From Mobula hypostoma (taxonomy: Eukaryota): a DNA stretch of 64,000 bases. The notes below the pieces were generated by a model. That model made no database searches and was not told the DNA's origin. It saw only the letters and a list, made by a program, of their open reading frames with translations. Both the position numbers and the translations under genes were made by a program. Each line of letters starts with the position of its first letter. Positions within the stretch are counted from its first letter, which is position 1. The stretch lies in NCBI RefSeq assembly GCF_963921235.1, contig NC_086108.1, forward strand, positions 43,650,001 through 43,714,000, read 5' to 3'. Shown here piece by piece: positions 1 to 59,400 of this stretch.

Positions 1-1
1 G

Positions 2-879
2 AGGAAGCAGTGGGACCGCACGTATTTAGAGTTTGCCCGTGAGATGCAGACATATTGTGAGCGTTGGTGCGCCTCGAAGGGGGTAGAGGGGGATTATGAC
101 AGACTGCTACAGCTGATCCTGATTGAACAGTTTAAAGGTTGTGTCCCTGAGGGTATGAGACCCTACCTAGATGAGAAAGAGGCAGCCACGTTAGCCGCAA
201 CTGCTAAGTTAGCGGATGAATATGCGTTGATGCATAAAATGAAGTTTTCCCCGAGTAAAGGCTACCAGAAGGGTAGTCAGGACGGCGGGGAAAGCCCGCC
301 GGAAAAGTCAGAAAGTAAGCCGGGGACTAGTGAGAAGGATAAGGTAGACTGGGAGCAGTCTGGTAGGAAGTCTCCTGGGGTCGTCTGTTATAATTGCGGG
401 AAAGTCAGACACTTTGCGTCCAGGTGCTTTGCCCCAAAGAAGGAGACGGGAAAAGGAAAAACGGCGATTTTGACTGGCTGTATCGAGCTGGTAAACGAAC
501 CGCTAGGGAAGGACAGGTCTGCCAAAGTTCAGGAAGGGCGCGAGAAGTTTATCTCGGCCGGATTGGTGTCAGTGAAGGAGGGGTTAAAACCAGTTCCAGT
601 CCGGATCTGGAGAGACACGGGAGCGTGTCAGTCACTAATACTGAAGAGTGTATTAGAGTTTAGCTCAGAGACCCAGACTGGGGAGTTCAAGGTCAAAAGG
701 TATTGGAGAAGGGACAGAGACAGTCCCTTTGCACCAGGTACACTTACAAAGTAACCTGGTCTCTGGATTAGTCACAATCGGGGTGAGGTCCGAATTACCG
801 ATGAAAGACGTGGAAGTCTTGCTCGGTAATGACGTCGCCGGGGGAATCGTGTTCCCAGCCGTGAGATTGACAGGTCAGC
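2..879 (+). pseudogene. Gypsy gag-protease region (SCAN-like CA-CTD, zinc knuckle, aspartic protease) with one +1 frameshift
   Basis: Frame open from nt 2: ERWC..DYDRLLQLILIEQF..AKLADEY; CYNCGKVRHFASRC; IWRDTGACQSLI. After the A-run at 695-698 the protease continues in another frame (GIGEGTETVPLHQV..LLGNDVAGG). Confidence 0.85.
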
Positions 880-3800
880 ATCATCCTATTAAAAGGAAAA
901 AAGTTTTTAAAGTGTTCCGGAGACTTAAAGCACAAATTTTATTTTTACAAGAGACCCATGTACGGAGGGGGGACAGACTACGTTTTTTCAAATTCTGGAA
1001 GGGACAACAATTTCATTCGAACTCCAATGCTAAGATTCGAGGCGTCTCTATTTTTATAGACTCCTCAGTTACTTTTATACAACAGGATATTATCTCTGAT
1101 CCGAATGGTAGATTTTTATTGGTTAGTGGTTTACTATTTAATAAAAAAGTAGTTTTGGTTAATGTTTATGCTCCTAATATGGATTGTCCGGAATTTTATA
1201 AATCATTGTTTGATCAGTTTCCGAATTTGAACGAGTTTTCATTGATTTGGGGCGGAGATCTTAATACCTGTTTATCTCCAGCTTTGGACCGTTCGGCTCC
1301 TTTACGGACTTTACCTAATAAATCTGCAAATTTGATTAATTTTTTCCTTTCTGATTCTGGGTCGACGGACATTTGGCGTTTTCTGCATCCTCAGGAAAAA
1401 GATTTTTCCTTCTTTTCACATGTTCATCATTCCTATTCAAGAATTGATTATTTTTTCATTGATTCTCGTCTCATTCCTTCAGTGATTAAATGTGATTATG
1501 ATTCTATAACCATTTCGGATCATGCTCCACTTAAGCTTTCTATTAAAATTATGGCCAATATACCAAACAATAGACAATGGCGTTTTAATTCGCTGTTGCT
1601 TCAGGACTCGGACTTTGTTAATTTTATGAATGAACAGATTGAGCTTTTTTTTACAATTAACCATACAGAAGATATTTCGGTTAACACTCTTTGGGACACT
1701 TTTAAAGCCTATATTCGGGGTCAGATTATTTCGTATTCCGTTGCTTTGAGGAAGAAACAGAAGCAGGAGGAGATGGCAATTGTGGACAAGATTAAAGAAA
1801 TTGATAAGAAATATGTTATGGCTCCTTCTGAGGAGCTATACAAACAAAGAACTGAACTTCAAATGGAACACAGTTTACTACTCTCGTCCTCGATTGTAAA
1901 CCAATTAAAGAAAACAAGAAGTGATTTTTATGTTCACAGTGATAAAATTGGCAAGCTGCTGGCTAATCAATTGAAATCTAATTATGTTAAATCTCAAATC
2001 AATCAGATTTATAACCAAAATGATCGATTGATATTGGATCATGTGGGGATTAATCAAACCTTTTGTGATTTTTATTCTTCTTTATATCAATCAGAGTCTC
2101 CTCGAGATTCTAAATATATGAATGATTTTTTAGATAAGTTACACTTCCCTCAGATTTCACAGGATATGTCTTCTTTATTAGATACTTCCATTACAATGGA
2201 TGAGATTAAGAATGTTATTTTTTCTATGAATCTGGGGAAAGCTCCTGGCCCTGATGGGTTTACCGTTGAATTTTATAAATGTTTTGCTTCTTTATTGATT
2301 TCTTGGCTCTATAAGGTTTTTGAGGCTTCTTTGAAACTTGGTAAACTTCCGGAATCTTTTAATAGAGCATCAATTTCTTTAATACTAAAGAAGGATAAAG
2401 ACCCTGCTCAATGTGCATCTTATAGACCAATATCTTTATTAAATGTTGATTCTAAAGTTTTTTCTAAGTTATTAGCAAATAGACTAGAAAAAGTACTTCC
2501 TTCTATTATTTCGGAAGACCAAACGGGTTTTATTAAAGGTCGTTACTCTTTTTATAATATTCGTACATTGTTAAATATCGTTTATACTCCCTCACAAAAT
2601 GTTCCTGAGTGTGTTATTTCTTTAGATGCCGAGAAAGCTTTTGATAGAGTAGAATGGCCTTATTTATTTAAGGTGCTTGAAATGTTTAATTTTAGCTTGA
2701 AATTTATATCCTGGATTAAACTGTTATATCACTCCCCTGTAGCCTCGGTTCGTACTAACTCCTTAAACTCACCTTTTTTTCCTCTCTTTCGTGGTACTCG
2801 ACAAGGCTGTCCTCTTAGTCCCCTATTATTTGATATTGCATTAGAACCTCTTGCAATTGCTATTCGAGAATCTTCAAATATTACTGGGATAACTCGGGGA
2901 TTAAAGTCCCATAAATTATCACTCTATGCTGATGATTTACTTTTATATATTTCTAATCCTGAGAGATCCATTCCTGCTGTTTTAGAGTTATTAGCACAAT
3001 TTGGTCTTTTCTCAGGTTATAAATTAAATCTTAGTAAGAGTGAACTTTTTCCGATTAATAAACATCTTCCCTTATATTATAAATTTCCATTTAAATTGAT
3101 TAATAATTACTTTTCATATCTTGGGATTAAAATTACTTGTAAACATAAAGATTTATTTAAGACTAACTTTTTACCATTAATAGACCATATTACTCAACTT
3201 TCATCTAAATGGTTTCCCTTATATTTAACTTTGATTGGTCGTATTAATGCAGTTAAGATGTTTTTTTTGCCAAAATTTTTATATGTGTTTCAGGCATTAC
3301 CAATTTTCGTTCCTAAATCTTTTTTTGATAAAGTTGACTCTAAAATTTCTTCATTTATTTGGCAGAATAAGAATCCGAGACTGGGTAAAATACATTTACA
3401 GAAAGCTAAGAGAGATGGAGGTTTAGCATTACCTAACTTTAGATTTTATTATTGGGCTATTAATATTCGACATATGAAATTTTGGTTACTTGACCGGGAC
3501 ATACTATCTATTCCTAAATGGGTAGCATTGGAATTACAATCTGTTCAGGGTTATACACTTGGTTCTATTTTAGGTTCCTCTCTTCCTTTTGATTCGAAAC
3601 GCCTTAAGCAGGTCTCTAACCCGATAGTTAAATATGCTTTGCGCATTTGGTTTCAATTCAGAAAATTTTTTGATCTTAATCAATTCGGGTTAGCGATTCC
3701 TATTTTAGGTAACATATTTTTTCCTCCCTCTTTTACGGATCGCGCTTTTCAAACTTGGAAGACTAAGGGTATTTTACGGTTTTTGGATTTATTTTTAGAT

Positions 3801-4610
3801 GGTTCCCTTATGTCTTTTGAACAATTATCTAATAAATATAACTTATCAAGAATACATTTTTTTAGATATTTACAAGTTAGAAATTTCCTAAGTACTATAC
3901 TTTCTTCCTTTCCAATGCTTCCTCCTATATATATTTTAGATTCGATAATTAACCTTAATCCATGTCAGAAAGGTGCATCGGCTATGATTTATAATATTAT
4001 TATGAAACTTAGGAAAGCTCCATTTGATAAGATTAGGGTAGATTGGGAACAGGAATTGGGGCTTACCATTTCTGTGGATGATTGGGGGCAGATTTTACAA
4101 TTAGTTAATACTTCCTCTATTTGTGCTAAACATTCCCTAATTCAATTTAAAGTGGTTCATAGAGCACATATGTCCAAAGATAAGTTAGCGCGTTTTTACT
4201 CGCATATTAATCCTTTCTGTGATAGATGTTCGGGGCAGATAGCCTCTTTAACTCATATGTTTTGGTCTTGCCCTACTTTGGAAACTTTTTGGAGAGATAT
4301 TTTCAATATTATTTCTAAGGTATTAAATATAGATATCTCTCCTCACCCTATTACTGCTATCTTTGGACTACCTAAAATTTCTAGTAATCTTTCCCCTTCA
4401 GCCCGTAGAATGATTGCATTTCTTACTTTAATGGCGAAAAGATGTATTTTACAACATTGGAAAGAGCTTAATGCTCCAACTACCTTTTTTTGGTTTTCTC
4501 AGACGATTTTATGTTTGAATCTGGAGAAAATTAGAAGTAACCTTTATGATTCTTCATTTAAATTTGAACAGATTTGGGGACCTTTTATTCGATATTTTCA
4601 TTTAATGTAA
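729..4610 (+). CDS. Chimeric ORF: 50 codons of Gypsy protease C-terminus fused in frame to LINE-1 ORF2 (APE endonuclease, RT, C-terminal CCHC)
   Basis: EN motifs LQETH, NVYAPN, GGDLN, SRIDYF, SDH; RT motifs KAPGPDGF, YRPISLLN, DAEKAFD, GTRQGCPLSP, YADD; CDRC..HMFWSC; no stops in 1293 codons; first in-frame ATG at 801. Confidence 0.9.
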   Translation: MHQVHLQSNLVSGLVTIGVRSELPMKDVEVLLGNDVAGGIVFPAVRLTGQHHPIKRKKVFKVFRRLKAQILFLQETHVRRGDRLRFFKFWKGQQFHSNSNAKIRGVSIFIDSSVTFIQQDIISDPNGRFLLVSGLLFNKKVVLVNVYAPNMDCPEFYKSLFDQFPNLNEFSLIWGGDLNTCLSPALDRSAPLRTLPNKSANLINFFLSDSGSTDIWRFLHPQEKDFSFFSHVHHSYSRIDYFFIDSRLIPSVIKCDYDSITISDHAPLKLSIKIMANIPNNRQWRFNSLLLQDSDFVNFMNEQIELFFTINHTEDISVNTLWDTFKAYIRGQIISYSVALRKKQKQEEMAIVDKIKEIDKKYVMAPSEELYKQRTELQMEHSLLLSSSIVNQLKKTRSDFYVHSDKIGKLLANQLKSNYVKSQINQIYNQNDRLILDHVGINQTFCDFYSSLYQSESPRDSKYMNDFLDKLHFPQISQDMSSLLDTSITMDEIKNVIFSMNLGKAPGPDGFTVEFYKCFASLLISWLYKVFEASLKLGKLPESFNRASISLILKKDKDPAQCASYRPISLLNVDSKVFSKLLANRLEKVLPSIISEDQTGFIKGRYSFYNIRTLLNIVYTPSQNVPECVISLDAEKAFDRVEWPYLFKVLEMFNFSLKFISWIKLLYHSPVASVRTNSLNSPFFPLFRGTRQGCPLSPLLFDIALEPLAIAIRESSNITGITRGLKSHKLSLYADDLLLYISNPERSIPAVLELLAQFGLFSGYKLNLSKSELFPINKHLPLYYKFPFKLINNYFSYLGIKITCKHKDLFKTNFLPLIDHITQLSSKWFPLYLTLIGRINAVKMFFLPKFLYVFQALPIFVPKSFFDKVDSKISSFIWQNKNPRLGKIHLQKAKRDGGLALPNFRFYYWAINIRHMKFWLLDRDILSIPKWVALELQSVQGYTLGSILGSSLPFDSKRLKQVSNPIVKYALRIWFQFRKFFDLNQFGLAIPILGNIFFPPSFTDRAFQTWKTKGILRFLDLFLDGSLMSFEQLSNKYNLSRIHFFRYLQVRNFLSTILSSFPMLPPIYILDSIINLNPCQKGASAMIYNIIMKLRKAPFDKIRVDWEQELGLTISVDDWGQILQLVNTSSICAKHSLIQFKVVHRAHMSKDKLARFYSHINPFCDRCSGQIASLTHMFWSCPTLETFWRDIFNIISKVLNIDISPHPITAIFGLPKISSNLSPSARRMIAFLTLMAKRCILQHWKELNAPTTFFWFSQTILCLNLEKIRSNLYDSSFKFEQIWGPFIRYFHLM
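863..879 (+). repeat. Left copy of 17-bp L1 target-site duplication
   Basis: GAGATTGACAGGTCAGC, identical to 4966-4982. Confidence 0.93.
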
Positions 4611-4965
4611 TATTTACCCTTCTTGTTTTTTTTTTCACTGTTTTAATGGAGGTCGGGATTGAGGACGTGATTTTAAGTTTAACTCTGTTTGGTTTCAAGT
4701 TAGCCCATTGCTTTGCTTTGCTTTTAGTTAGTTGCACGGTGGTTTTTTTTTTTGGGGTTTTTTTTTCTTTTTTTTTCCATTGATATATATAAAATCTAGT
4801 ATACTATTATGTTATCTTGGTTTCTTATGCTTAAATTACATTGTTTGTAGTATTTTCTTTTTGGTATTGTTATCTTTTGGAATTTTATTATACTTTAACA
4901 TTGTATTAATGTTTATATGGCTTACCTTTTTTGTATACTTACTCAATAAAAAGATTTAAAAAGAA
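880..4965 (+). mobile_element. 5'-truncated LINE-1 (ORF2, T-rich 3' UTR, A-rich tail)
   Basis: AT-rich L1 ORF2, AATAAA at 4945-4950, A-rich tail 4951-4965, flanked by 17-bp direct repeat GAGATTGACAGGTCAGC. Confidence 0.93.
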
Positions 4966-4982
4966 GAGATTGACAGGTCAGC
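4966..4982 (+). repeat. Right copy of 17-bp L1 target-site duplication
   Basis: GAGATTGACAGGTCAGC directly after the A-rich tail; Gypsy sequence resumes here. Confidence 0.93.
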
Positions 4983-6270
4983 CTGCCAGCATTGAGGCCC
5001 CGCCCATGGACTCAGGTTCATCACGGGACCGCGGTAGTAAATTTAGCTGAGATGTTTCTGCCAGTCTTGTACGAGACGGGGGTAGAAAATGAAAAGGAGT
5101 GTAGTGAGACAAGAGGTAGTGAGGGAGCTGGGACAGACATAGCAGTAGCCAGGAAAGAATTTGTGCAGATGCAGGAGCGAGATGAGGGGCTGATGGTTTT
5201 GGTGGAGGAGGAAGTACTAAGGAAGAAAGGGAGACCAAGTACCGTACCCGCAGATGAGGAATGGGGGGTGGTGCAAAAGAGTTATGGGGATGAGGTTTTT
5301 AACCTGGCCCACAAGGTACCCCCCGGTGGACATTTTGCGGTACTGGAGGAAACAGTTGGTGGAATCATGAAAGAGGTTTACCGGCTGCCCAGGGGGAAGG
5401 ATGTTATTGATTATGACTGACGCGAACTGAGACGGTCACAGGCTTTTGATATGCTAACAAGCCTAGTCGGTGTTAGTGCGGAAATCAATGAAGCTAGGGT
5501 CCCCCCGATAAGAGAAAAGAACCATTTTGAAAAGATGAGTATGGTATCGACCAGATGGGAGAAAGCTATTGTTTTGGCCAGGTCTGCTGATAAGGTCTCT
5601 CCCTTAATCCCCGAACAAAGCGGCTCTTTAGGAGAAGTAATTAAACGACTCGCACATGTGTGTTTGATTGTCCCGAGGCGATGCAAAGAACTGGGACGTT
5701 GGGTGGTGTCTGTTATACTAGGTCAGCCTAGCGAGCACCATACATATAGAATGAGTAATTCAGTGACTAAAGGGCTGACGAACACAGAGGTGTGTATTGG
5801 TGATGTAATACGGCTGTCTGAAGCCAGCTTGATAGTGAACCTTGAAAAAAATGAGTTCGGCCACATGAAGGTCACTTACCTGGGAATTGTGGTGACACAG
5901 GGGCAGCTGGCAACAATGCAAGCTAAAGTGCGGGCTATCTCTGACATCCCAACCCTGACAGATAAGAGGGCCCTCAGAAGGCTCTTGGAGATGGTGGGGT
6001 ACTGTAGGAAGTTTTGCAATAACTCTGCGGTCACTACGCCTCCCCCTCCTACTCAGCCCTTGCGAGAGAAAACTAAGTCGGAATGGGACGACCCTTGTTA
6101 TTGTGGTCCGGGACAAAACCAAATGAGAGGTTACATTGATCGCAATTCATCAGTGTTTTTGGCCACTGTGAAGTTTGCTAAGTTGGAGCCTGGTCTAAGA
6201 GATTATTAATAACACATATAAAAGGAACAGAAAATGTGATGGCTGACTGTCTGTCAGGTGTTGACAACTT
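4983..6270 (+). pseudogene. Collapsed Gypsy pol remnant (integrase N-terminal fragment, then RT thumb fragment)
   Basis: VPADEEWGVVQ..LAHKVPPGGHF parallels VPANEEWAIVHQ..LAHSKPLNGHL of the element at 26595-27266; RLSEASLIVNLEKNEFGHMKVTYLG..KRALRRLLEMVGYCRKFC parallels RT of 25257-26153. Confidence 0.8.
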
Positions 6271-6383
6271 CAAATTCGCTGTATTAGCCAAATAGCTGAT
6301 AAAGATGTATATTTGTGTGTATCAAATAATGTATTCATGTTTGTAATTTTTACCCCCCAGTAAAAATCCTTAAAGGGGGGAAG

Positions 6384-7248
6384 TGTGACAAGAATACACA
6401 TAGATTAAGATGTTAGCTGTCCTGTGTGCTCAGCAGTTGGTCTGCCACCTGTCTTCAGGAGAAAGAGGGATAAGGGAAACAATGGAGCAGCATTTGGAGA
6501 TGTGAAATGAAGGGATGGGAGAGAGAGTAACAGAAGGAGGGAGCTGTCAAGAGCGGCTCCCCCTTTGAATCCTGAACTGTTGAAGTGATGGACAGGCGAT
6601 AACCCAGCAGGGGGATAAAAAGGGACAGGTTCGCTAAGGCAGGACACACATGACACCCGAGGTAACAAGACCCTGGAAGCGATGCGTCTCTCACAAGTCG
6701 GTGGGAAGTACCGGGCCATAAACGCACAGGGTGGAAAGGCACGATCGGCGGGAACCTGGTGTGTGTCCACCCTTGCCTGGGTGCTGGGTTCACCGCAGAG
6801 AAACGATCGTATCTGGAAACGGAGGGGTCACGGTCGGTTACCTCAGATGACATCACAAAGGACTCGCCCGAAAGCTGACTGCGAAGGTCTGTGTGGAAGC
6901 GGTTTTGAATATTCATTCGTTTTGCTCTCTCTCTCCTTCCCCCCACACTGTCCACCTCCCACGGCAGCGATTACTGCGAACTGAACTGAACTAAATTGAA
7001 CTGAACTTTGCGTCACTTTGAAACTGGTCATTTACCCCTAGACAACGATAGAGCTTGATTAATCCTGTTATCTTAATTCTGTGTACATGTGTGTTTATCA
7101 TTGCTGAACTGCTGCATTTATTATCCTTTTGATTAGAGTACTGTGTTGCTTGTTTCTTTAATAAAACTTTCTTAGTTCTAGTAATCCAGACTCCAACTGG
7201 GTGATCCATTTCTGCTGGTTTGGCAACCCAGTTACGGGGTACGTAACA
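6384..7248 (+). repeat. 3' LTR of the first Gmr1-like element
   Basis: Starts TG after the PPT, ends CA; TATA-like GATAAAA near 6614, (GAACT)n tract near 6978-7007, AATAAA 7160-7165. Confidence 0.85.
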
Positions 7249-8205
7249 CTAAACACAGCTCCAATGCCGCATTTAAATTTGCTCGCACCACCTCTGTCGT
7301 TGGCCGAGTCTAAGGTGGTGACAAATTAGCATGTAGGAGGGAGACTGAAAATCTGGCTGAGTGGTACCACAGCAACAACCTCTCACTCAATGTCAGCAAT
7401 AACAAAGTGATGATTATTGTCTTTAGGAGAAGGAAACTGGAAGTTCTATGAGACAGTCCTTATCGGGGAATCAGAAGTGGAAAGGGTCAGCAACTTTAAA
7501 TTCCTTGGCGTTATCATCTCAGAAGATCTGTCCTGGGCCCAGCAGGTAAGTGCAATTATGAAGAAAGCACATTAGCACCTTAGAAGCATGTTTACTTCCT
7601 TAGAAGTCAAGTCAAGTCACTTTTTATTGTCATTTTGACCATAACTGCTGGTACAGTACACAGTAAAAATGAGGCAATGTGTTTCAGGACCATGGTGCTA
7701 CATGAACAATACAAAAACTACAGTGAACTACGTAAAACAACACAAAACTACACTAGACTACAGACCTACCCAGGACTACATAAAGTGCACAAAACAGTAC
7801 AGGCATTACAATAAATAATAAACAAGACAATAGGCACAGTAGGGGGCAGTAGGTTGGTGTCAGTCCAGGCTCTGGGTATTGAGGAGTCTGATGGCTTGGG
7901 GGAAGAAACTGTTACATAGTCTGGTCGTGAGAGCCTGAATACTTCGGTGCCTTTTGCCAGATGGCAGGAGGGAGAAGAGTTTGTATGAGGGGTGTGTGGG
8001 ATCCTTCATAATGCTGTTTGATTTACAGATGCAGCGTGTGGTGTAAATGTCTGTAATGGTGGGAAGAGAGACCCCGATGATCTTCTCAGCTGACCTCACT
8101 GACCTGCGAAGATTTAGCATGTCACCTAAAACTCTGACAAACTTTCTATAGATGTGTGGTGGAGAGTATATTAATTGGTTGCATCACGGCCTGGTATGGA
8201 AACAC
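7249..8205 (+). mobile_element. Rex1/Babar-like LINE RT 3' fragment, with an oppositely oriented related LINE 3' end inserted at ~7606-8105
   Basis: Degenerate NNLSLNVS..FKFLGVIISEDLSW sequence; minus-strand ORF 7860-8120 (DPTHPSYKLFSLLPSGKR..NSFFPQAIRLLN) with (TTGAC)n tail. Confidence 0.7.
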
Positions 8206-14629: not shown

Positions 14630-14956
14630 GAGATGTTCACGACGAGATAAGGTTCTCATAAAGTGGTTTAAGTACGCATCAGCAAAGGTGTAGAACTGTC
14701 AGGAGAGATGGTGAAGGAACAAGCAAAATTATTTCATGAAGAATTAGGACCGGATTACAAATGTGATTACAGTGAAGGGTGGCTTCAGCATTTCAAGCAG
14801 TGTCATGGCATAAAATTTCCTGCATTGTGTGGTGAAAAACTGGCAGTAGACAAGAAAGCAGCTGCTGGGTTTGTTGATGTGTTCGACAAGTTAGTTTCTG
14901 ATGAAAATTTAACTTCCGAGCAGGTCAACAGTGTGGATGAAATTGCCTTATATTAA
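14630..14956 (+). mobile_element. Tigger/pogo (CENP-B/Jerky-like) transposase fragment
   Basis: LIKWFK..VKEQAKLFHEEL..YSEGWLQHFKQCHGI..GEK..EQVNSVDEIALY: HTH and start of DDE_1 domain. Confidence 0.75.
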
Positions 14957-25020: not shown

Positions 25021-28000
25021 TTAACATCTGGAAAGACAATCAGCAATTACATTATCTTTGCCTTTAATGTGAGTTATCATGAGATCATACTCTTGCAAAA
25101 TCAAACTCCAATCCAGCAACCTTCTATTTTTGTTTTTCAGCTTACTCAAGAACACCAATGGATTATAATCTGTATAAACCACAAGTGGTTTCTGAGCTGT
25201 GCAAACATACACATCTAAAAGCTACAAAGCCAAAATAAGTGATAATAATTCCTTCTCTATGGTGGAACAATTTCTTTGATGCTCATTGAATTTCTTTGAA
25301 AAGTATGCCACAGGATGGTCAACATCATCATAATCATCCCTTTGTAGTAACACTGCTCTGCAGCTTCATCACTGGCATCCACAGCTATGGAGAATGGCTT
25401 GGCAAAATCGGGTGACCTGAGCACAGGTTGGTGACATAAGATGGCTTTCAATTTATCAAATGCCTCCTGACAAGGTTCTGTCCAAACAAACTTTTCACCC
25501 TTCTTCAGGAGGTTAGTCAATGGGAGAACAATATCAGCAAAGTTCTTACAGAACTTGCGATAATATCTGGCCATTCCCAGAAATCTTCTAAGAGCCCTTT
25601 TCCTGGTTGGAATGGGATCCTCAGAAATTGCCTGAACAGGAGCCAACCTGCCTTGACCTACAACATAACTAAGATAGGTCACAGTGGCATGGCCAAATTC
25701 ACTCTTAGCTAGGTTAATTGTAAGGTTGGCTTTAGAGAGCCTTTCGAACAGCTTTTCCACTGCAGAGATATGGGCTTCCCGGGTGTCATTCCCTGTGACT
25801 AAATCATCAATATAGGCATCTGTGTGTTCTAACCCTTGAATTACAGAATTAATAATTCTCCGGAATGTTCCCAGAGCATTTTTCATTCCAAATGGCAGAA
25901 CATTGTTTTCATACAACCCAGAAGGCGTCACAAAGGCAGAAATTTCTCTACCTCTATCGGTTAATGGAACACACCAATATCCTTTTAACAGATCAATCTT
26001 TGTAAGAAACTTGGCTTGTAGAGGGTTTGTTTGTACAGGAAACGAAACAAGCACTTTATTTCTCAGCTTGAATGACTTCATTCTGGCTTGTTTATCATAC
26101 TTAGTTTTCATCCTTTCCTGGCTGATTTTAGATTCTCCTTTGCAAGGTTGCAAGCCCTTTGCAATTTGTCTTTGAACTTCAAGACATAATCTAGAAAATT
26201 AACATGCAAGTCATTGTTAACCCACTGTTCCTTTAACAATGCCAAAGGTCCTCAGACCTGGTGACCAAACACAAGTTCAAAGGGACTAAAGCCTAGGGAC
26301 TCTTGTACTGACTTCCTTACTGCAAATAAAAGCAAATGAACTCCCTTATCCCAATCCTTCTCATTTTCAATACAGAATGTCCTAATCATGGTTTTGAGGG
26401 TAGAGTGGAATCTCTCTAAGGCCTCTTGGAATTCTGGTTGATACGCAGATGATGTAATCTGTTTGGCTCCCAGTTTGTAAACTACCTGCTGGAATAATCC
26501 TGACATAAAATTACTCCCTTGATCAGACTGAATTTCTTTAGGCAAACCAAATAAACAAAAAACTTTACGACAGCCTGCGACACAATTTTGGCTTTTATCT
26601 TTCTGAGAGGTATTGCTCTGGAAATCTAGATGCTGTACACATGACAGTTAGCAAATATTGATGACCAGCTTCAGACTTTGGCAATGGGCCAACACAATCC
26701 ACAATAACTTTAGAAAAGGGTTCACCAAATGCAGGAATAGGCTGCAGTGGGGCCACTGGGGTGTCCTGATTAGGTTTACCCACAACCTGACAAGTGTGAC
26801 AAGTCCTGCAAAATGTTGCAACATCTTTCCTCAAACTAGGCCAGAAGAATTGTTTTAAAACTTTGTTCACATTTTTATTCACACCTAGATGGCCATTCAA
26901 GGGTTTACTGTGGGCCAAAGTTAAACTCTCTTTCTTATAGGCTTTAGGAACTACAACCTGGTGAACAATTGCCCATTCCTCATTTGCAGGAACATCAGGT
27001 GGTCTCCACTTCCTCATTAACACTCTATCTTTGAAATAATACCCTACTGGCACTTTATCAATCTCCTCACCAGAGAGAGCTTTTTCTCTTAAAGCTTCAA
27101 TCTCAGGGTCCCTGCTCTGTTCTGCTATAAACTCCTTCCTAGACAGAGATAAACCAGATTTAATACCTGGATCCTGGTGAAACAATGAAGGTAGAAAAGT
27201 CCCTGACAAGTCATCAAAATCTGATTCCCTATTTGGGCTATCATGAGTAGCCGAATCATGCTGCACAGGACCATCTGCATTGGCAAGTTTCTTGGCACTA
27301 GCTCAAGTTACTGCACACGAGGGGTAAATGATAGGGTCTATCTTTGAATCATCATTGATAGGCTTAGTTGTCAGCTGCACTGCAGGAACAACTTTACCAC
27401 CTGCTAGGTCATTCCCTAACAATAAAGAAACACCTTCCACCGGTAAACTGGGTCGTAGTTCTATTTTAACGAGTCCTGAAACTAACTCTGACTTCAAAAT
27501 TATCTTGTGCAGAGGTACAGAAACAACATCGCACCCAATAACTTGAATAAGATTTACCTCACCAGTGGAAGTTTCATCATCAAACTTCAGAACACTGTCT
27601 AACATAAGTGACTGGGAAGCCCCAGTATCTCAAAGAATTTTCACCAGTACCAGGGTTGACCCTTCCTTTACTGAAACAAACCCATTTGACGTAAAATGAA
27701 GAAATTCTTTTCTAACCTGACCAGACGTTTTAGCCTTTGACAGAGCTTTGTCAGAACGTTCAGAACCCTGTGGATTCACAGGTGTTTCAACATTTTGAAC
27801 ACAGGCATCTGGAACTGCCTCATTTTCCTCCTTATTTTTCAGAAGGAAACAGTTAGCCATAACATGACCAGGTTTCCTACAATAGTGACAAGTAGGACCA
27901 AGGCCTTCTCCTTTAGTTGTTTCCCTTCATCCTTACCTTTGTCACTAAACCCAGATTTGATTTCTGGTTTACCCTGACTATCCATGATACTCTTTTGGAA

Positions 28001-28963
28001 GGTCTTACTCGGGGTAAACTTAATCTTGTGGGTTAAGGCAAACTTATCTGCTAATTTAGCAAACTCTTGCAAAGTGGTGGCATCCTTTACATCTAAGTAT
28101 GCCTTTATATCATTATGGACACACTTTTAAATTCTTCAATTAAAATTAACTCTTTCAGTTTCTCAAAATTACCATCCACATTTTTAGGTGTGCACCATCT
28201 TTCAAAACACACAGATTTCTCATAAGCGAATTCCACATAAGTCTGGTTCACAGATTTCCTCAAATTTCTAAAGCTTTGCCTTTTGGCTTCTGGAACTAAT
28301 TCATAGGCTTTAAGTACAGCCCGTTTCACGATCTCATAATTAGCTGCATCTCCATTTGATAAGGCAGACTAAGCCTGTTGAGCCTTACCCTTAATTACAC
28401 TCTGTAACAAGAGAGGCCAGCTTTCTTTCAGCCACTTTAGGCTCTGAGCAACCTTCTCAAAATGTTGAAAGTATTTATCAACCTCAGTTTCATCAAACAG
28501 AGGGACCAATTTAAGTTCCTGGCTGGCAATAAACGGTACAACCAGCTCCTTAGAGCCAGCAACTTCTCTCTTGAGCCTTAGCTTATCCATTTCAAATCAC
28601 CTCTGTCTTTCTGCTTCCTCCCTTTGTTTGTCTGCTTCTCTAGCATCAAATTGCCTTTCTCTTTCTTTAGCCTCAGCCTCTAATTTAAATCCTTCAAACT
28701 TCATTTGTTCCAGTCATAACTAGATCTCCTCTTTACTTATAGGAAACCTCTAACACCTCCTCATCAAACTGCTTCGTAGATATATAGTGCTCAACTATTT
28801 TCCTCTGAACCTCTGACTTTTTCATACCCCGCTTTACCTCTGTAAGGTTCAGCTCATTAGCAATGGTCAACAATTCATCCTTTTTGGCTTTCTCTGTCTC
28901 AGGGGTTGGCAATATCAGAAATTCCCCAGCATCCATTGCTGCTAGTTTCTCCACACAAGTCAA
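25021..28963 (-). pseudogene. Frameshifted gag-pol of the second Gmr1-like element
   Basis: Gag (FQHFEKVA, AYELVPEA, FERWC, LILIEEFK), PR (LLLGNDLAGG), INT (H..GH..CRTCHTC, VIVDCVGPLP, IQSDQGSNF, LERFHSTLK), RT (IDLLKGYW, PFGMKNA, YIDD), RNase H (VDASD, VYTDYNPL, NVIADCLSR). Confidence 0.9.
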
Positions 28964-34396: not shown

Positions 34397-34888
34397 TCAG
34401 CTTTTTGCTTTGTGATTTGCATAGTTAGGAAACCCAAACTGTGAGATCATGATATTGGAGTATTTCAAAGGCATGCTGCCATAGATAGCAGCCAACTGAT
34501 TCAAACACCATGATCTCTGAAGCAGATGCTCTGCACGATGCCACATCCCATTGAAACCACTATTGGAATCTTTCTCCAGATTCCTCATGTCCACTGGCTT
34601 CACAAACACTCCTGATGGCTTCCCAGTGTACTTTGCAACTATGAAGTTCATGGCAATATCATCACAATTTTGTGTTTTGTCTATTAAAGTGTGGACAGAT
34701 GGGAGCTGGACTTTAAATTTCTCAAGATAACCAGCATGGAAAAATGCAGCTCCAATCAGCACCATGGAATAGTAGTCACCAATTCTACCTGCTGCATTCT
34801 GGAGCTCAAAACTCCCATAACTATAAACTCCTGAAGAAGTTGTGACGTGCTTTCGAGGGACAAAGCCCACTATTTGATCTGGGAATTG
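34397..34888 (-). CDS. EXTL2: Exostosin-like glycosyltransferase 2, last coding exon
   Basis: Acceptor TTTGTTTTTCAG; QFPDQIVGFVPRKH..YSMVLIGAAFF..QNCDDIAMNF..MWHRAEHLLQRS..YSNIMISQFGFP; TGA at 34397-34399. Confidence 0.96.
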   Translation of the reverse strand, partial: QFPDQIVGFVPRKHVTTSSGVYSYGSFELQNAAGRIGDYYSMVLIGAAFFHAGYLEKFKVQLPSVHTLIDKTQNCDDIAMNFIVAKYTGKPSGVFVKPVDMRNLEKDSNSGFNGMWHRAEHLLQRSWCLNQLAAIYGSMPLKYSNIMISQFGFPNYANHKAKS

Positions 34889-36181
34889 CTGAAAAACAAA
34901 AAATAATGCTCAGTTTAAAAAAAAATACTCCAAGAACATGTTTTTAAAAATTACTCACACAAAAATTAGCCGCCATCACAGCTAATCTGGTTTAAATTTC
35001 AATCACCTAGGTCAAATACTTCTTAATATTTTATATATACTGATGAGGTTTCTTCTTAACCACCAGCTCCCCAAAGTTAACAATTCAGTGTGATCTAATC
35101 TAACAAACCCCTCCTCTACAGCTGTTTTCGCATTTTTCTCTGCACCTAGCCATGTAGAGAATGAGGAAATAGCTATGGAAATAAAAGTGAAGGAGTTATG
35201 ATGGTAAAAATATAGAGAGTAATTAAATATCTTCACCATCTTTTGAGAAATAAATTGATGAGGTTAAGAACTGAAATACACAGAATCTGAATGTTACACC
35301 CTGGCAGATGGTAGATGCAGAGGTTATGATCTTACAAAGATCTTCTGATTTTACAAAAGTATCATAGGACTGGAAAACGGCTAGCTAAATACCTTTATTT
35401 GAAAAGGATGAAGACAAAAAGTGGATAACTTCAGGGTAGTTAGCCCAAAGGTCATAGTTGTGAACATCTTCAAGGGGCCATATAACAATCTACTGCACTG
35501 CTAAAACTTTATCTCAGAGTCAGATTTATTATCACCGGCATTTGACATGAAATTCGTTAATGCAGGCAATGGGAGAATCATCCCTCTTGTGCTTCTTCAT
35601 CTTGTCACTCGAGATTCAGTGTCACACAACCCTACCACTTTGATCTCCGGGATTTTAGAAGATCCTTATGGGATGTCAAAGAGTAATATTTACCTGAAAA
35701 TCTCTACTTTATAAACTGAAATTGATTGTGGGAATTTTTTTTTAAATCTCAGTACAAAAACCTTTTAGTAATAAACTAAAGGTCCTTGGATCATTAAATT
35801 TTTCAACTGTATGTTTAATAATCTGATATTTAAAATTAACTCCATAAAAATGTAAGAGTTAACAGAGTTACCGTGAGAATGTAAATTATCTCTAGTTATC
35901 ACACTAATGCACTTATCACACTACTTAGGGAGTGCAAATATTAAAGACTTTTGTTAGCTTATCCCAATTTATTATGAAGACATCATTTCCTGTGTGATTG
36001 CATTTCCTACCAATGTTTTCAGGTTTCAATTTTTTCTTGAACAGAAGCACAAATTGGAGACAGGTTCAGTACAATATGTTTACAAGCTAATTCAGAAAAA
36101 AAAGATACTTATTTGATATCTTAACACATTCTGCACATTAAGCAAGTTATCCTCTAAATCAGGAAATATTTAAAAACATAC

Positions 36182-37410: not shown

Positions 37411-38069
37411 CATCCTTTCTTATGCAAGGGGTCAAAATAGTGTGGACTCACCAACACCCTGCACAATTGCAACAAAACATCACTATTTTTAAACTCCAAC
37501 TTCGTACAGTAAAGACCAGTATGCCATTTGCATCCTTAACAACTTGTAGCGCCTGCTAACATTTTGTGATTCACAAACCATATGTAGATCCCTCTGTACT
37601 TCACTAATTTGTAATCTTTTTCTATTTAGATGAAAATCTCCCTTTTGGTTCCTACTACTAAGTACATTTCCCAGATTAAACTTCATCTGCCAAATTCTGC
37701 TTACTCACTACTGAGGCAGATATCGTTAAATTGTCTTCATCACAACTTGCCGTTCTTCCTATCTCCAGATGAAAAACAGCAGCACTCCAGAAACTAAACC
37801 ACTCAAAGCAGATCTAAACTGTGACTGAGGACAAGAAACACAGCACCTTTGAATAAAAGGGAAGGACCAATCCATGCGAAGTGTAAGCTGGACACTTGGA
37901 GCTGAATGTTTTTCAAGGCTGTTCTTTCCCCACTGAGGGATGATTTAATTACACAGACAATTGCTGTAAAAATTGTATTTCAAACAATTTCAGAGATAAA
38001 ACATTAAATAACAGGTGATATAAAGATAAGCCAGATGGGAATAAGATTAACATTACAATAATTATTTAC

Positions 38070-38482
38070 CTTTGGTTTCCAGTTCAGGAAATGGTTCCAG
38101 GCGATTTCGCATTCTATTCACCGTCTGCTCCCTAAAAATAACTGGGATGGGATGTGGCCCCAGTGAATCCCATAAATCTTTTGGCGGTTTTATTCCAACA
38201 CTGTTCCAAACGACAATGATTTTATGCAGGTTTGGAATGGCCTGATAATGATTCAGCAGTTTAAGAAGCAGGTCCGTCCTGTTGTAGGTCTGCATCACGA
38301 TGGTGAATGAATTACGAGTGTCGATTCTGTGCACGTCCTGCTCTCTACGGACCACAGTAGCTCCGCTTTCCACAACTTTGGGCAATAACGTGGTCAAGAC
38401 AGCTCCCACAATAAGAACAATTAGAACAGCCATCACTAAATACGAGGGAAGAGTCCCACCACCAAACAACCGTCTTGTGAAT
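38070..38482 (-). CDS. EXTL2: EXTL2 413-nt coding exon (type II membrane anchor and start of GT64 domain)
   Basis: Acceptor TTTTACATTCACAG, donor AAG|GTAAAT; VLIVLIVGAVLTTLLP..SFTIVMQTYNRTDLLLKLLNHYQAIPNLHKIIVVWN..NRMRNRL. Confidence 0.95.
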
Positions 38483-39181
38483 CTGTGAATGTAAAACAGC
38501 TGAGTGAAATATTGTAAACAATTCTCATTCACAAAACCCCTCACCCAGATTCCAAACCTACTTAGCTGAGACAGATATCCTCCAATTCTAATAGAAGGAC
38601 TAATGAATAAACAAAACATAAAAAAAGCTTTGAAGTATTTGACCAGCACGGTGTTGCAGCAGTTAGTACAGCAACAGCCACATGGGCTCAATTCCTGCCA
38701 CTGTCTGTAAGCAGTTAGTACGTTCTCCAGGTGACTGCGTGGGATTCCTCCCCGTGCTCCGGGCCTGTTACAGTGCTGTATCTCTAAATAAATTTTTTTT
38801 TGGTAACCTCTGAAATAAGAAGAAATTTTCATTGTCTCGCAAGGCCTGTAATTATATCCATCTGATTTAGGCACATATTGCATTAAAGTGAGTCTTATTT
38901 CCTATGTCAACCCAGATAGTATGGCCAAAGTTGTCCAAACTGGATGACATGAGGATATGAGAGGCAGATCAAACCCATTATTATTCTCACTTTCCTAACT
39001 TGGAATGGACAATTAGTTTTTTTATATACATTCCATGTTATTTCTGAGAGTTTTTTTTCCATAAAAAAGACACAAAGCACTTAATTTGCTTGTCATTTTC
39101 TTTTAACAAAGCTGTTTATTTTTTTTTAAACTGCCAAGTATCAAGATTGCTAACATGTAATTCCAGAATTGTATCCACCTG

Positions 39182-56433: not shown

Positions 56434-59400
56434 TATGAGACCATAAGACATAGCAGAATTAGGCCATTTGGCCCATCAGGTCTGCTCTGGCATTCAATCA
56501 TGGCTGTTCCCTTTTTTTTTCCTCCTCAGCCCCACTCCCTGGCCTCCTCCCCGTTACCTTTGATGCGGCCTCCACTGCTGCCTTTGGTAACAAATTCCAT
56601 AAATTTACCACACTCTGGCTAAAGAAATTTCTCCGCATTTCTGTTTTAAATGGACGCCCCTCTATCCTGAGGCTGTGCCCCCTTGTCCTAGACTCCCGTA
56701 CTATGGGAAACATCCTTTCTGTGTCTACTCTGTCTAGGCCTTTCAACATTCAAAGGTTTCAATGAGATCCCACTTCATCCTAAATTCTAGCAAGTATAGG
56801 CCCAGAGTCATCAAATGTTCCTCATATGATAGCCCTTTCATTCCCAGAATCATCCTTCTGAACCTCCTCTGAACTGTCTCCAATGCCAGCACATCTTTTA
56901 TAGACAATAGACAACAGGTGCAGGAGTAGGCCATTCGGCCCTTCGAGCCAGCACCGCCATTCACTGTGATCATGGCTGATCATCCACAATCAGTACCCAG
57001 TTCCTGCCTTATCCCCATAACCTTTGATTCTGTTATCTTTAAGAGCTCTATTCACCTCTTTCTTGAAAGAGATAAGGAGCCTAAAACTGTTCACATTATT
57101 CAAGGTGAGCTTCACCGGTGCCTTATAAAGCCTTAGCATCAAATCCCTGCTCTTATATTCTGGACCTCTTGAAATAAATGCTAACATTGCATTTGCTTTC
57201 CTCACCACTGACCCTTCCTGCAAGTTAACCTTTAGTATGTTCTGCACAAGGAGTCCCTTTTCATCTCAAATTTTTGGATTTTCTCCCCATTTAGAAAATA
57301 GTCTGTACATTTATTTCTACTAGTAAAGTGCATGACCATGCATTTTCCAACATTGTATTTTATTTGCCACTTTCTTGCGTATTCTCCTAATCTAAGCCCT
57401 TCTGCAGCCTTCCTTTTCACTCAACACTACCTGGCCCTCCACCAATCTTCATATCATCTGCAAACTTGGCAACAAAGCCATCTATCCATCATCTAAATCG
57501 TTGTACAGATTTCCTCGGCTATCCGAAGGTAGAGCATTCCTGTGAAACGGTTCGTAAGCTGGAATGTCGTAAAGTGAATAAGGAATTGCCATTTATTAAT
57601 ATGGGAAAAATTTTTGAGCGTTCCCAGACGCAAAAAATACCTTACAAAATCATGCCAAATAACACATAAAACCTAAAATAACAGTAACATATAGTAAAAG
57701 CAGGAATGATATGATAAGTACATGGCCTGTATAAAGTAGTGCAGCGCAGCGAAAATCTCACAGCAGCACTCTCGGTGGAAGTGCTCTCGGCAGAAACACT
57801 CTCCAGTAACCTTCAAGCTCTGAAGCTGCCAAATCATACCAAATAATGCATAAAATACACAGCCTATATAAAGTAGAAATAATGTATGTACAGTAGCCAA
57901 ACTCACTATTGCCGTATTTATTGTTGATGGTTCGAAGCCTTTAAAATCGTTCACTGCTTTGGGACACAGTTTCCTCCAAATACCATTTCTCATCGAGACT
58001 GTTAGCCTATTGAGAACATCTCCAATGTTGGTGATTGCCAATTTTATATTGTATCCTTTCCAGATCTCTCGCAAAGCTGCTTTGGAATTGCCCTCTCTGT
58101 CAATGGTATTTACAATAAAACGCATCATATTTTGCATATAGTAAGCTTTAATTGTGGCTATTAGGCCTTGGTCGCACGGCTGCAGCAATGATGTCGTATT
58201 TGGCGGTAAGAGCGCAACACAAATGTTACAGCCATACTCGGTAATGTCAGGCAGATGAGCAGCACAATTATCGGCAATCACAAGACACCTATTATCGAGG
58301 TTATTTTCTCTACAGTATTTTTCAACGAAAAGCCTAATGTATCCACTCGTGTACTCTGAAAAAAGCACTTGGGTATTCCAACCGCTTGGATGTGAATGGA
58401 ACACAACAGGAAGTGTTTTCTTATCAATGCCTTTAAGTGCCCTGGGATTTTCTAAATGGTACACTAGTAGAGGCTTAAGGACAACATCACCAGTGGCGTT
58501 AATAATAGGCATTAGGGTAAACCTGTCCTTCGATGCTTTGTGTCCCTTAGCTTGCTTTTCTTCTATCGAAATAAATGTCTCGCTCGGCAAGTTTTTCCAA
58601 TAAATTGCAGTTTCATCACAGTTAAACACTTATACAAATAACCAAACGCCATTTCTCTCTGTGTATAAATAGTACGAATGGTGGACGCAGGCAAGTTCAA
58701 CGCGTGGACAATGTCCTTACTTCGTTCACCATGATCGAAACGCTTAATTATGTCTAGTTTTACGCTAAGTGTGCACCCTTACGAGCTGTTTTAGACTTTT
58801 CTGATACCTTAGAACTCATCTTGCTAATGGATGCACAAAATAAATCGACATAAAGCACGTGTTTAAGCAATGCCGGCTAGAATGCAGTTCCGGGGGAGGA
58901 GCTTGGCTGTTTGGGCGTGTGCTGCCTTTTTTCGTAACAGTGAAAACACCTGTTAGCGAAAACAGGTAACTAATGTAGTTCTTTCATAACAGCGAGGTGT
59001 CGTAAAGCGAACGTTCGGAAAACAGGGGCCACCTGTACTGCATAAAAAGCAGTCCCAACACTGACCTCTGCGGAACACCACTAGTCAGTGGTAGTCAACA
59101 TGAGAAAGATCCTTCTATTCCTATTCACTGCCTCCTACCAATCAGCTGATGCTCTAACCATGCTAGTAACTTTTTTGTAATACCATGGACTCTTAACTTG
59201 GAAGCAGCCACTGGTGTGGCACCCTGTCAAAGGCCTTCTGAAAGTCCAAATTTATAACACCCAGTATCTATCGTACTTGTAATCTCCTCAAAGAATTCCA
59301 ACATGTTCGTCATGCATGTTTTTCCCTTAAGGAAGCCATGCTGACTTTGTCCTATCTTGACCTGTATCACCAAGTTCTCCATCATCCTTAACAATTGACT

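Follow-up and report, generated by a model that had tools for sequence, protein, structure and literature searches.

Does an open reading frame (ORF) that joins part of a retrotransposon protease to the ORF2 of a LINE-1 (L1) represent a composite element in the making, or the accident of one element landing inside another? The question is raised by a 64,000-nucleotide stretch of the Mobula hypostoma genome (RefSeq assembly GCF_963921235.1, contig NC_086108.1, positions 43,650,001 to 43,714,000 of the forward strand), hereafter the window, in whose coordinates all positions are given. Near the start of the window, a 5'-truncated L1 lies within a Gmr1-like long terminal repeat (LTR) element, referred to here as the host. 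We conclude that the locus is very likely a recent target-primed L1 insertion in a decayed, non-autonomous LTR copy, with a chance match of frame, and that it is most likely inert.

The boundaries of the L1 carry this reading. Positions 863 to 879 are repeated exactly at 4966 to 4982, giving a 17-bp target site duplication (TSD) that brackets the L1, and no other 17-mer is repeated within bases 1 to 8000 of the window. With the polyadenylation (polyA) signal and the A-rich tail, all the scars of target-primed insertion are present; TSD, polyA signal, tail and 5' truncation are its usual scars according to excerpts of PMC10760644. Because the TSD encloses only the L1, the two elements were joined by sequential insertion, and a chimera formed in a single event was ruled out. 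The initial annotation of this DNA had described the 17-bp TSD, the loss of ORF1 and of the first ORF2 codons, and the sense-orientation nesting of the L1 in a Gmr1-like element, and these points held up; the nesting is documented by the TSD, by a SCAN-bearing gag and by an integrase remnant placed before a reverse transcriptase (RT) remnant. The features of the locus are as follows.

2 to 754, plus strand: host gag and N-terminal part of the protease, open at the window edge, with stop codon TAA at 752 to 754
About 17 to 238, plus strand: SCAN domain of gag (Pfam)
386 to 427, plus strand: CCHC knuckle of gag
614 to 622, plus strand: DTG protease motif, in frame 2 to 754
690 to 700, plus strand: host protease frame break that puts gag and DTG out of frame with the L1
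699 to 879, plus strand: C-terminal segment of the host protease and linker, in register with the L1 ORF, holding the Met codon at 801 to 803
863 to 879, plus strand: TSD, 5' copy, exact match (joint from 862 to 4966 with 17 shared letters)
880 to 4610, plus strand: 5'-truncated L1 ORF2 (Pfam, alignment with relatives)
891 to 1523, plus strand: endonuclease (EN) domain without its first strand and Asn (Pfam, amino acids 79 to 289 of frame 657 to 4610)
2385 to 3131, plus strand: RT domain with YADD (Pfam RVT_1, amino acids 577 to 825)
4101 to 4292, plus strand: zinc knuckle (Pfam zf-RVT, amino acids 1149 to 1212)
4611 to 4965, plus strand: L1 3' untranslated region (UTR), T-rich, with AATAAA at 4945 to 4950 and a short A-rich tail
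4966 to 4982, plus strand: TSD, 3' copy, exact match
4983 to 6371, plus strand: degenerate host pol, an integrase-region remnant followed by an RT remnant (no Pfam integrase or RT match)
6372 to 6383, plus strand: polypurine tract (PPT; direct reading)
6384 to 7248, plus strand: host 3' LTR, TG...CA, 865 bp, carrying AATAAA at 7160; the matching 5' LTR would lie beyond the window edge

The L1 sequence starts at 880, within ORF2, and ORF1 is absent. Compared with P0132, the closest full-length relative, which is 65% identical to the window ORF2 and aligns from its own residue 17, the window copy has lost 15 codons plus one base of ORF2, and codon 879 to 881 is a host/L1 hybrid. The ORF2 contains the APE endonuclease, the RT and the C-terminal zinc knuckle of the L1 clade (the zf-RVT match, at 25.9 bits, falls under the Pfam cut-off of 27.5). 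It matches human L1 ORF2p with an E value of 2e-181, and its closest relatives, of fish type, show 62 to 65% identity. The RT and C-terminal motifs showed 10 deviations at 257 conserved columns, compared with a median of 11 in the relatives. The 5' UTR promoter and the ORF1 of an autonomous L1 are both lacking, and ORF2 contains four additional AATAAA signals.

Contigs of four sequencing runs (X1, X5, X7 and X9) were compared with the window. X5 and X7, whose RNA origin is only presumed, served as sequence from other samples and are silent on expression. The comparison covers 32 listed contig pieces, beyond which there are 92,554 more, and summed depths were not taken as copy numbers. Upstream of 880, contigs of X5 and X7 run on into native L1 sequence, which encodes the lost Trp-Asn motif. 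At the exact 5' junction, no letters are shared between host and native L1. By eye, four bases at 873 to 876, located 4 to 7 bases before the junction, are common to both in register; this match keeps a conserved Gly codon and may have helped 5' joining or arisen by chance.

The insertion can be pictured as follows. The mRNA of a young, abundant L1 family would have been reverse-transcribed by target priming into a Gmr1-derived, non-autonomous LTR copy that had presumably decayed before the L1 arrived. The L1 endonuclease would have nicked the pyrimidine-rich bottom strand in the linker between protease and integrase, cDNA synthesis would have stopped 46 bases into ORF2, and repair would have generated the 17-bp duplication. 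The product resembles the 5'-truncated LINE-1 copies described in parts of PMC10760644 in its APE endonuclease, RT, zinc knuckle, TSD of less than 20 bp, polyA signal, tail and 5' truncation. It differs from them in that its truncation point lies just 46 bases inside ORF2 and keeps the frame of the upstream sequence, that its tail is short and impure, and that host and native L1 share no letter at the exact 5' junction. Chimeric U6/L1 and mRNA/L1 insertions likewise join non-L1 sequence in sense orientation to the 5' side of a truncated L1, but in the cases covered by the excerpts of PMC13174262 one TSD encloses both parts, whereas here only the L1 is enclosed.

The relative ages of the two elements were compared using the same contigs. 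All 13 listed L1 pieces from X5 and X7 showed zero differences from the window, covering 2,401 of 4,086 bases at depths of about 900 to 5000. In contrast, three listed host pieces from these runs differed by 20 of 251 bases, 20 of 314 bases, and 16 bases plus four gaps of 198, which corresponds to a host divergence of 6 to 10%. Five listed L1 pieces from X1 and X9, outside the 2,401-base figure, had low depth and 7 to 12 differences each, and are older family members. The near-fixed differences from the window gave the same contrast. Among the 40 listed of 324 substitution rows, 20 were near-fixed, 18 of them in 3,145 host bases and two in 4,086 L1 bases, so that near-fixed differences per base were roughly tenfold higher in the host than in the L1. 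As judged from these sequences, the host would be older than the L1 insertion. The initial annotation had named an ORF2 essentially identical to the young L1, together with a single-copy junction and a lack of transcripts across it, as what would make the locus an inert recent insertion; of these, the identity is what the listed pieces showed. We infer that the ORF is open because the L1 insertion is recent. Both near-fixed L1 changes are nonsynonymous (Asp to His at 448 and Pro to Ser at 501, the Pro being kept in 47 of 55 relatives), and thus give no hint of purifying selection, although two changes prove little. In addition, the young L1 family carries two replacements at conserved sites within 1932 to 1940 (Glu to Val at 378 and Gly to Ser at 380); since both are found in zero-difference pieces, they are family traits.

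By its SCAN gag and its integrase-before-RT order, the host is a probable member of the Gmr1 lineage of Ty3/Gypsy elements. Its gag carries SCAN and CCHC and is joined to an aspartic protease motif, and its pol remnants map integrase-first onto a second, more complete copy at 25.2 to 28.3 kb (Integrase_H2C2, rve, then RVT_1 and RNase H). In the excerpted literature, SCAN is confined to Gmr elements (PMC4131045), and integrase placed before RT marks the Gmr1 lineage (PMC2774666). The host resembles Gmr1 elements in its SCAN gag, CCHC knuckle, DTG protease, integrase remnant before RT remnant, PPT and TG...CA LTR. Its family differs in lacking the integrase and RT cores and in being non-autonomous, and this copy additionally has two frame breaks, the second near 5012, and a stop at 5418 to 5420. 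The catalytic RT motif (YxDD) and the integrase core of an autonomous LTR element are thus both missing; the YxDD position reads CIGD, and CIGN in the family protein P0137, next to an 18-residue gap. The element ends at 7248, where 95 X9 contigs depart into unrelated flanks.

The host belongs to an abundant Mobula family derived from Gmr1 (proteins P0121 to P0141, together with window positions 1 to 879 and 4983 to 7248), with one long open ORF of up to about 1000 amino acids that encodes gag, SCAN, CCHC, protease, and integrase and RT remnants without catalytic cores. In family proteins of up to 1004 amino acids, gag and protease are open, and none of the six longest proteins scanned had a Pfam RT or integrase match. 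The family looks like a gag-protease-coding non-autonomous family. The host pol had been described as destroyed; the RT and integrase cores are indeed gone, but their loss is a trait of the whole family and not of this copy. An empty-site joint that skips exactly 4103 bases is present in X1 and X9, in which 18 and 7 contigs, respectively, run from 879 straight into the host sequence beyond the TSD. Copies with an uninterrupted target are common, and since the family exists without this insertion it has no need of the RT of this L1; the same copies rule out a rescue of the host element by the L1 RT. Two RefSeq gene models consist of the host retroelement ORF: P0123, named "metastasis-associated in colon cancer protein 1 isoform X1", and P0139, named "ubiquitin-conjugating enzyme E2 G2 isoform X1". 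These are either mis-annotations or exonised copies. The second Gmr1-like element, on the minus strand at 25257 to 28260, is more distant; it contains gag, protease, Integrase_H2C2, rve, RVT_1 and RNase H, and it is disrupted by frame shifts and by what looks like an internal deletion.

The reading frames were then compared between gag, protease and ORF2. The stop-to-stop open frame spans 657 to 4610 (1317 amino acids). As the initial annotation stated, 729 to 4610 comprises 1293 codons plus a stop, starting with TTG, and an in-frame ATG lies at 801 to 803; the context of this ATG is weak, with C at -3 and A at +4. The description of the ORF as an in-frame fusion of a Gypsy protease with ORF2 applies locally to the C-terminal segment of the protease, but not to gag and DTG, which lie in frame 2 to 754 and end at the stop at 752 to 754. 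That frame is out of register after about 695, and gag, the protease active site and ORF2 do not share one open frame. Translation of gag ends 46 bases before the ATG at 801, and a protein starting there would contain 26 host residues only, without the protease active site. Because of the frame break near 695, gag is unable to read into ORF2; gag as a start for ORF2, which had been suggested, was therefore ruled out. Among 20 host-family proteins compared (18 from Mobula hypostoma or M. birostris), 18 cover both sides of 695 and all of these switch there from frame 2 to frame 3, while the remaining two start at the Met equivalent to 801. The gag and protease part of the host is 85 to 95% identical to the Mobula family proteins.

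In the contigs, the depth lacking the 695 break was 712 of 728 in X5, including its dominant contig, 133 of 43,656 in X1, 93 of 79,982 in X9 and 0 of 688 in X7; the X1, X9 and X7 rows neither confirm nor deny the break. Where X1 and X7 alignments extend to 707, they stop within 13 letters, a pattern suggestive of clipping at the break. The break falls in a short homopolymer. In the 3.7-kb L1 ORF, none of the 101 homopolymer runs of at least four bases is broken, and local assembly quality therefore looks good.

The EN, RT and CCHC motifs of the ORF had been reported as intact. This is supported for the RT and, with its sub-threshold score, for the zinc knuckle, but not for the EN. In an alignment with 55 relatives, the first catalytic Asn of the EN, equivalent to human N14, is invariant in all 55 and is Arg in the window, in agreement with the annotated loss of this residue along with the N terminus. 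The Gly located three residues past the lost Asn is retained, and the remaining catalytic motifs are present. In the human element, according to excerpts of PMC1965478, N14A apparently eliminated EN activity and lowered retrotransposition to 1%, and the matching Zorro3 mutant fell below 5%. On this comparison, the EN of the fusion is probably not catalytic, and a protein made from the ATG at 801 would most likely be RT-intact without endonuclease activity. The proposal that an LTR element with a dead pol now carries a working non-LTR RT is not supported, in view of the gag frame break, the lost Asn, the missing protease site, the near identity of the L1 to its young family and the empty-site copies of the host family.

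To estimate how often such a frame match would arise by chance, 117,525 potential junction positions were scored, drawn from both strands of the window with the element left out. An in-frame ATG precedes any stop at 29.5% of the positions and lies within 26 codons at 23.7%, and at least 74 open upstream codons are found at 4.8%. These frequencies bear out the chance in-frame insertion that the initial annotation had set as its null explanation. Excerpts of bioRxiv 10.64898/2026.10.27.761883 give 2.5 to 3.7% Gypsy/DIRS in batoid genomes and about 29% LINEs in mobulids. Nested in-frame insertions are expected, and we infer that sense orientation and frame match are both due to chance. No fused host/L1 protein was found among the best 150 of 722 representative matches, all of which were protease-side with no L1 similarity, nor among the 20 host-family proteins and 121 L1 homologs. 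Neither the 1269-amino-acid nor the 1293-amino-acid product had an exact match in the protein collection. A contig crossing 879/880 is not among the 32 listed pieces, which is no evidence of its absence among the 92,554 others; among the pieces listed, the dominant contigs on either side of this junction follow the parental sequences. No description of an in-frame LINE-LTR hybrid turned up in our literature searches, although this is no proof that precedents are lacking.

Several observations weigh against an inert chance insertion. The host differences may partly reflect subfamily distance rather than age. None of the listed contigs has the window's version across 695, so an assembly slip at this position is possible. 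The order of gag stop, 46 bases and ATG is similar to the ORF1-ORF2 arrangement; human L1 ORF2 is read by reinitiation, as stated in an excerpt of PMC10760644 citing Alisch 2006. In addition, the host segment aligns gap-free to the lost first EN strand with the conserved Gly kept. AlphaFold2 (AF2) modelled residues 15 to 22 as this first strand, with a predicted local distance difference test score (pLDDT) of 82 to 84 for the block and a mean of 90.9, and with a template modelling (TM) score of 0.82 to human L1 EN; the run used a 72-sequence alignment, which biases the model, and a single-sequence control was uninformative (pLDDT 39). By this model, the EN domain may still fold.

Some of these observations would fit a passively expressed locus, in which a transcript from the 5' LTR ends at the L1 polyA signal and reinitiation at 801 yields an EN-deficient, RT-competent ORF2p. 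The ATG lies just 46 bases past the gag stop, the RT and C-terminal motifs deviate no more than those of the relatives, the EN fold is retained in the AF2 model, and LTR-flanked retrocopies are reported to be co-transcribed with their LTR element (PMC5131818). However, the context of the ATG is weak, the 5' LTR would lie outside the window, four more AATAAA signals lie in ORF2, and at 880 the dominant X5 and X7 contigs enter native L1 and not host sequence. We consider expression of this kind improbable, and its product would be incidental, with no more than weak activity independent of the endonuclease. It is still less probable that an L1 has been caught acquiring an LTR promoter, and gag in place of ORF1. 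The transcript would then consist of gag, stop, 46-base spacer and ORF2, ending at the L1 polyA signal; the linker would complete the EN fold, and the product would move the composite RNA by endonuclease-independent or trans-assisted priming. If the 695 break were false, a single polyprotein would result.

Such a gag-protease-ORF2 polyprotein, of about 1,760 to 1,810 amino acids, forms a reading of its own, in which gag takes the place of ORF1, the LTR that of the L1 promoter, and the 695 break either results from a slip in assembly or arose after the L1 insertion. The position of the break within a homopolymer agrees with this, as do a gag that is open across 230 visible codons and host residues of which only 5 of 289 are found in no family protein. 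Against it stand the two further host lesions downstream, the unbroken homopolymer runs of the L1 ORF, the lost EN Asn and the lack of a fused homolog among the proteins searched; moreover, the roughly tenfold excess of near-fixed differences in the host indicates that its lesions are most likely older than the L1 insertion. Transcripts would also be cut at the L1 polyA signal at 4945, ahead of the PPT and 3' LTR, and LTR-type copying of the composite is therefore unlikely. Overall, a polyprotein is very improbable. Capture of an L1 mRNA by template switching during LTR reverse transcription has scarcely any probability left. Excerpts of Tan et al. 2016 (PMC5131818) document this process in animals, with foreign coding sequence placed in sense and in frame in an LTR element where it could be co-transcribed, as here, and the four-base match before the junction could be read in its favor. 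Those retrocopies, however, arise where the template is switched at microsimilarities, and they interrupt the LTR element. At the present locus, no host sequence was replaced, 17 bases are duplicated around an L1 with polyA signal and tail, and the exact 5' junction lacks shared letters; the TSD around the L1 alone largely refutes capture. A target-primed insertion into a decayed host copy thus remains the best explanation of the locus.

Other features were observed elsewhere in the window, all on the minus strand except where a fragment is given by position only. A glycosyl transferase family 64 gene, which we take to be EXTL2, contributes two exons, at 34397 to 34909 and 38062 to 38901. A DDE_1 transposase remnant, presumably Tigger/pogo-like, is located at 57673 to 58629, with a related fragment near 14672 to 14956.

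The components of this locus and the process that joined them are each already known. A truncated L1 nested within another element is an everyday finding, and the frame of a young copy is open by default. Transcription and copying of the composite, if they took place, would offer a direct view of a LINE trading its own promoter and RNA-binding module for the equivalents in an LTR element, a step that normally has to be deduced from the history of old families. The abundant gag-protease-only Gmr1 family in Mobula, mislabelled by gene annotation, should be of some use to annotators. Altogether, the locus is a clean example of an open chimeric ORF arising by chance in a repeat-rich ray genome.

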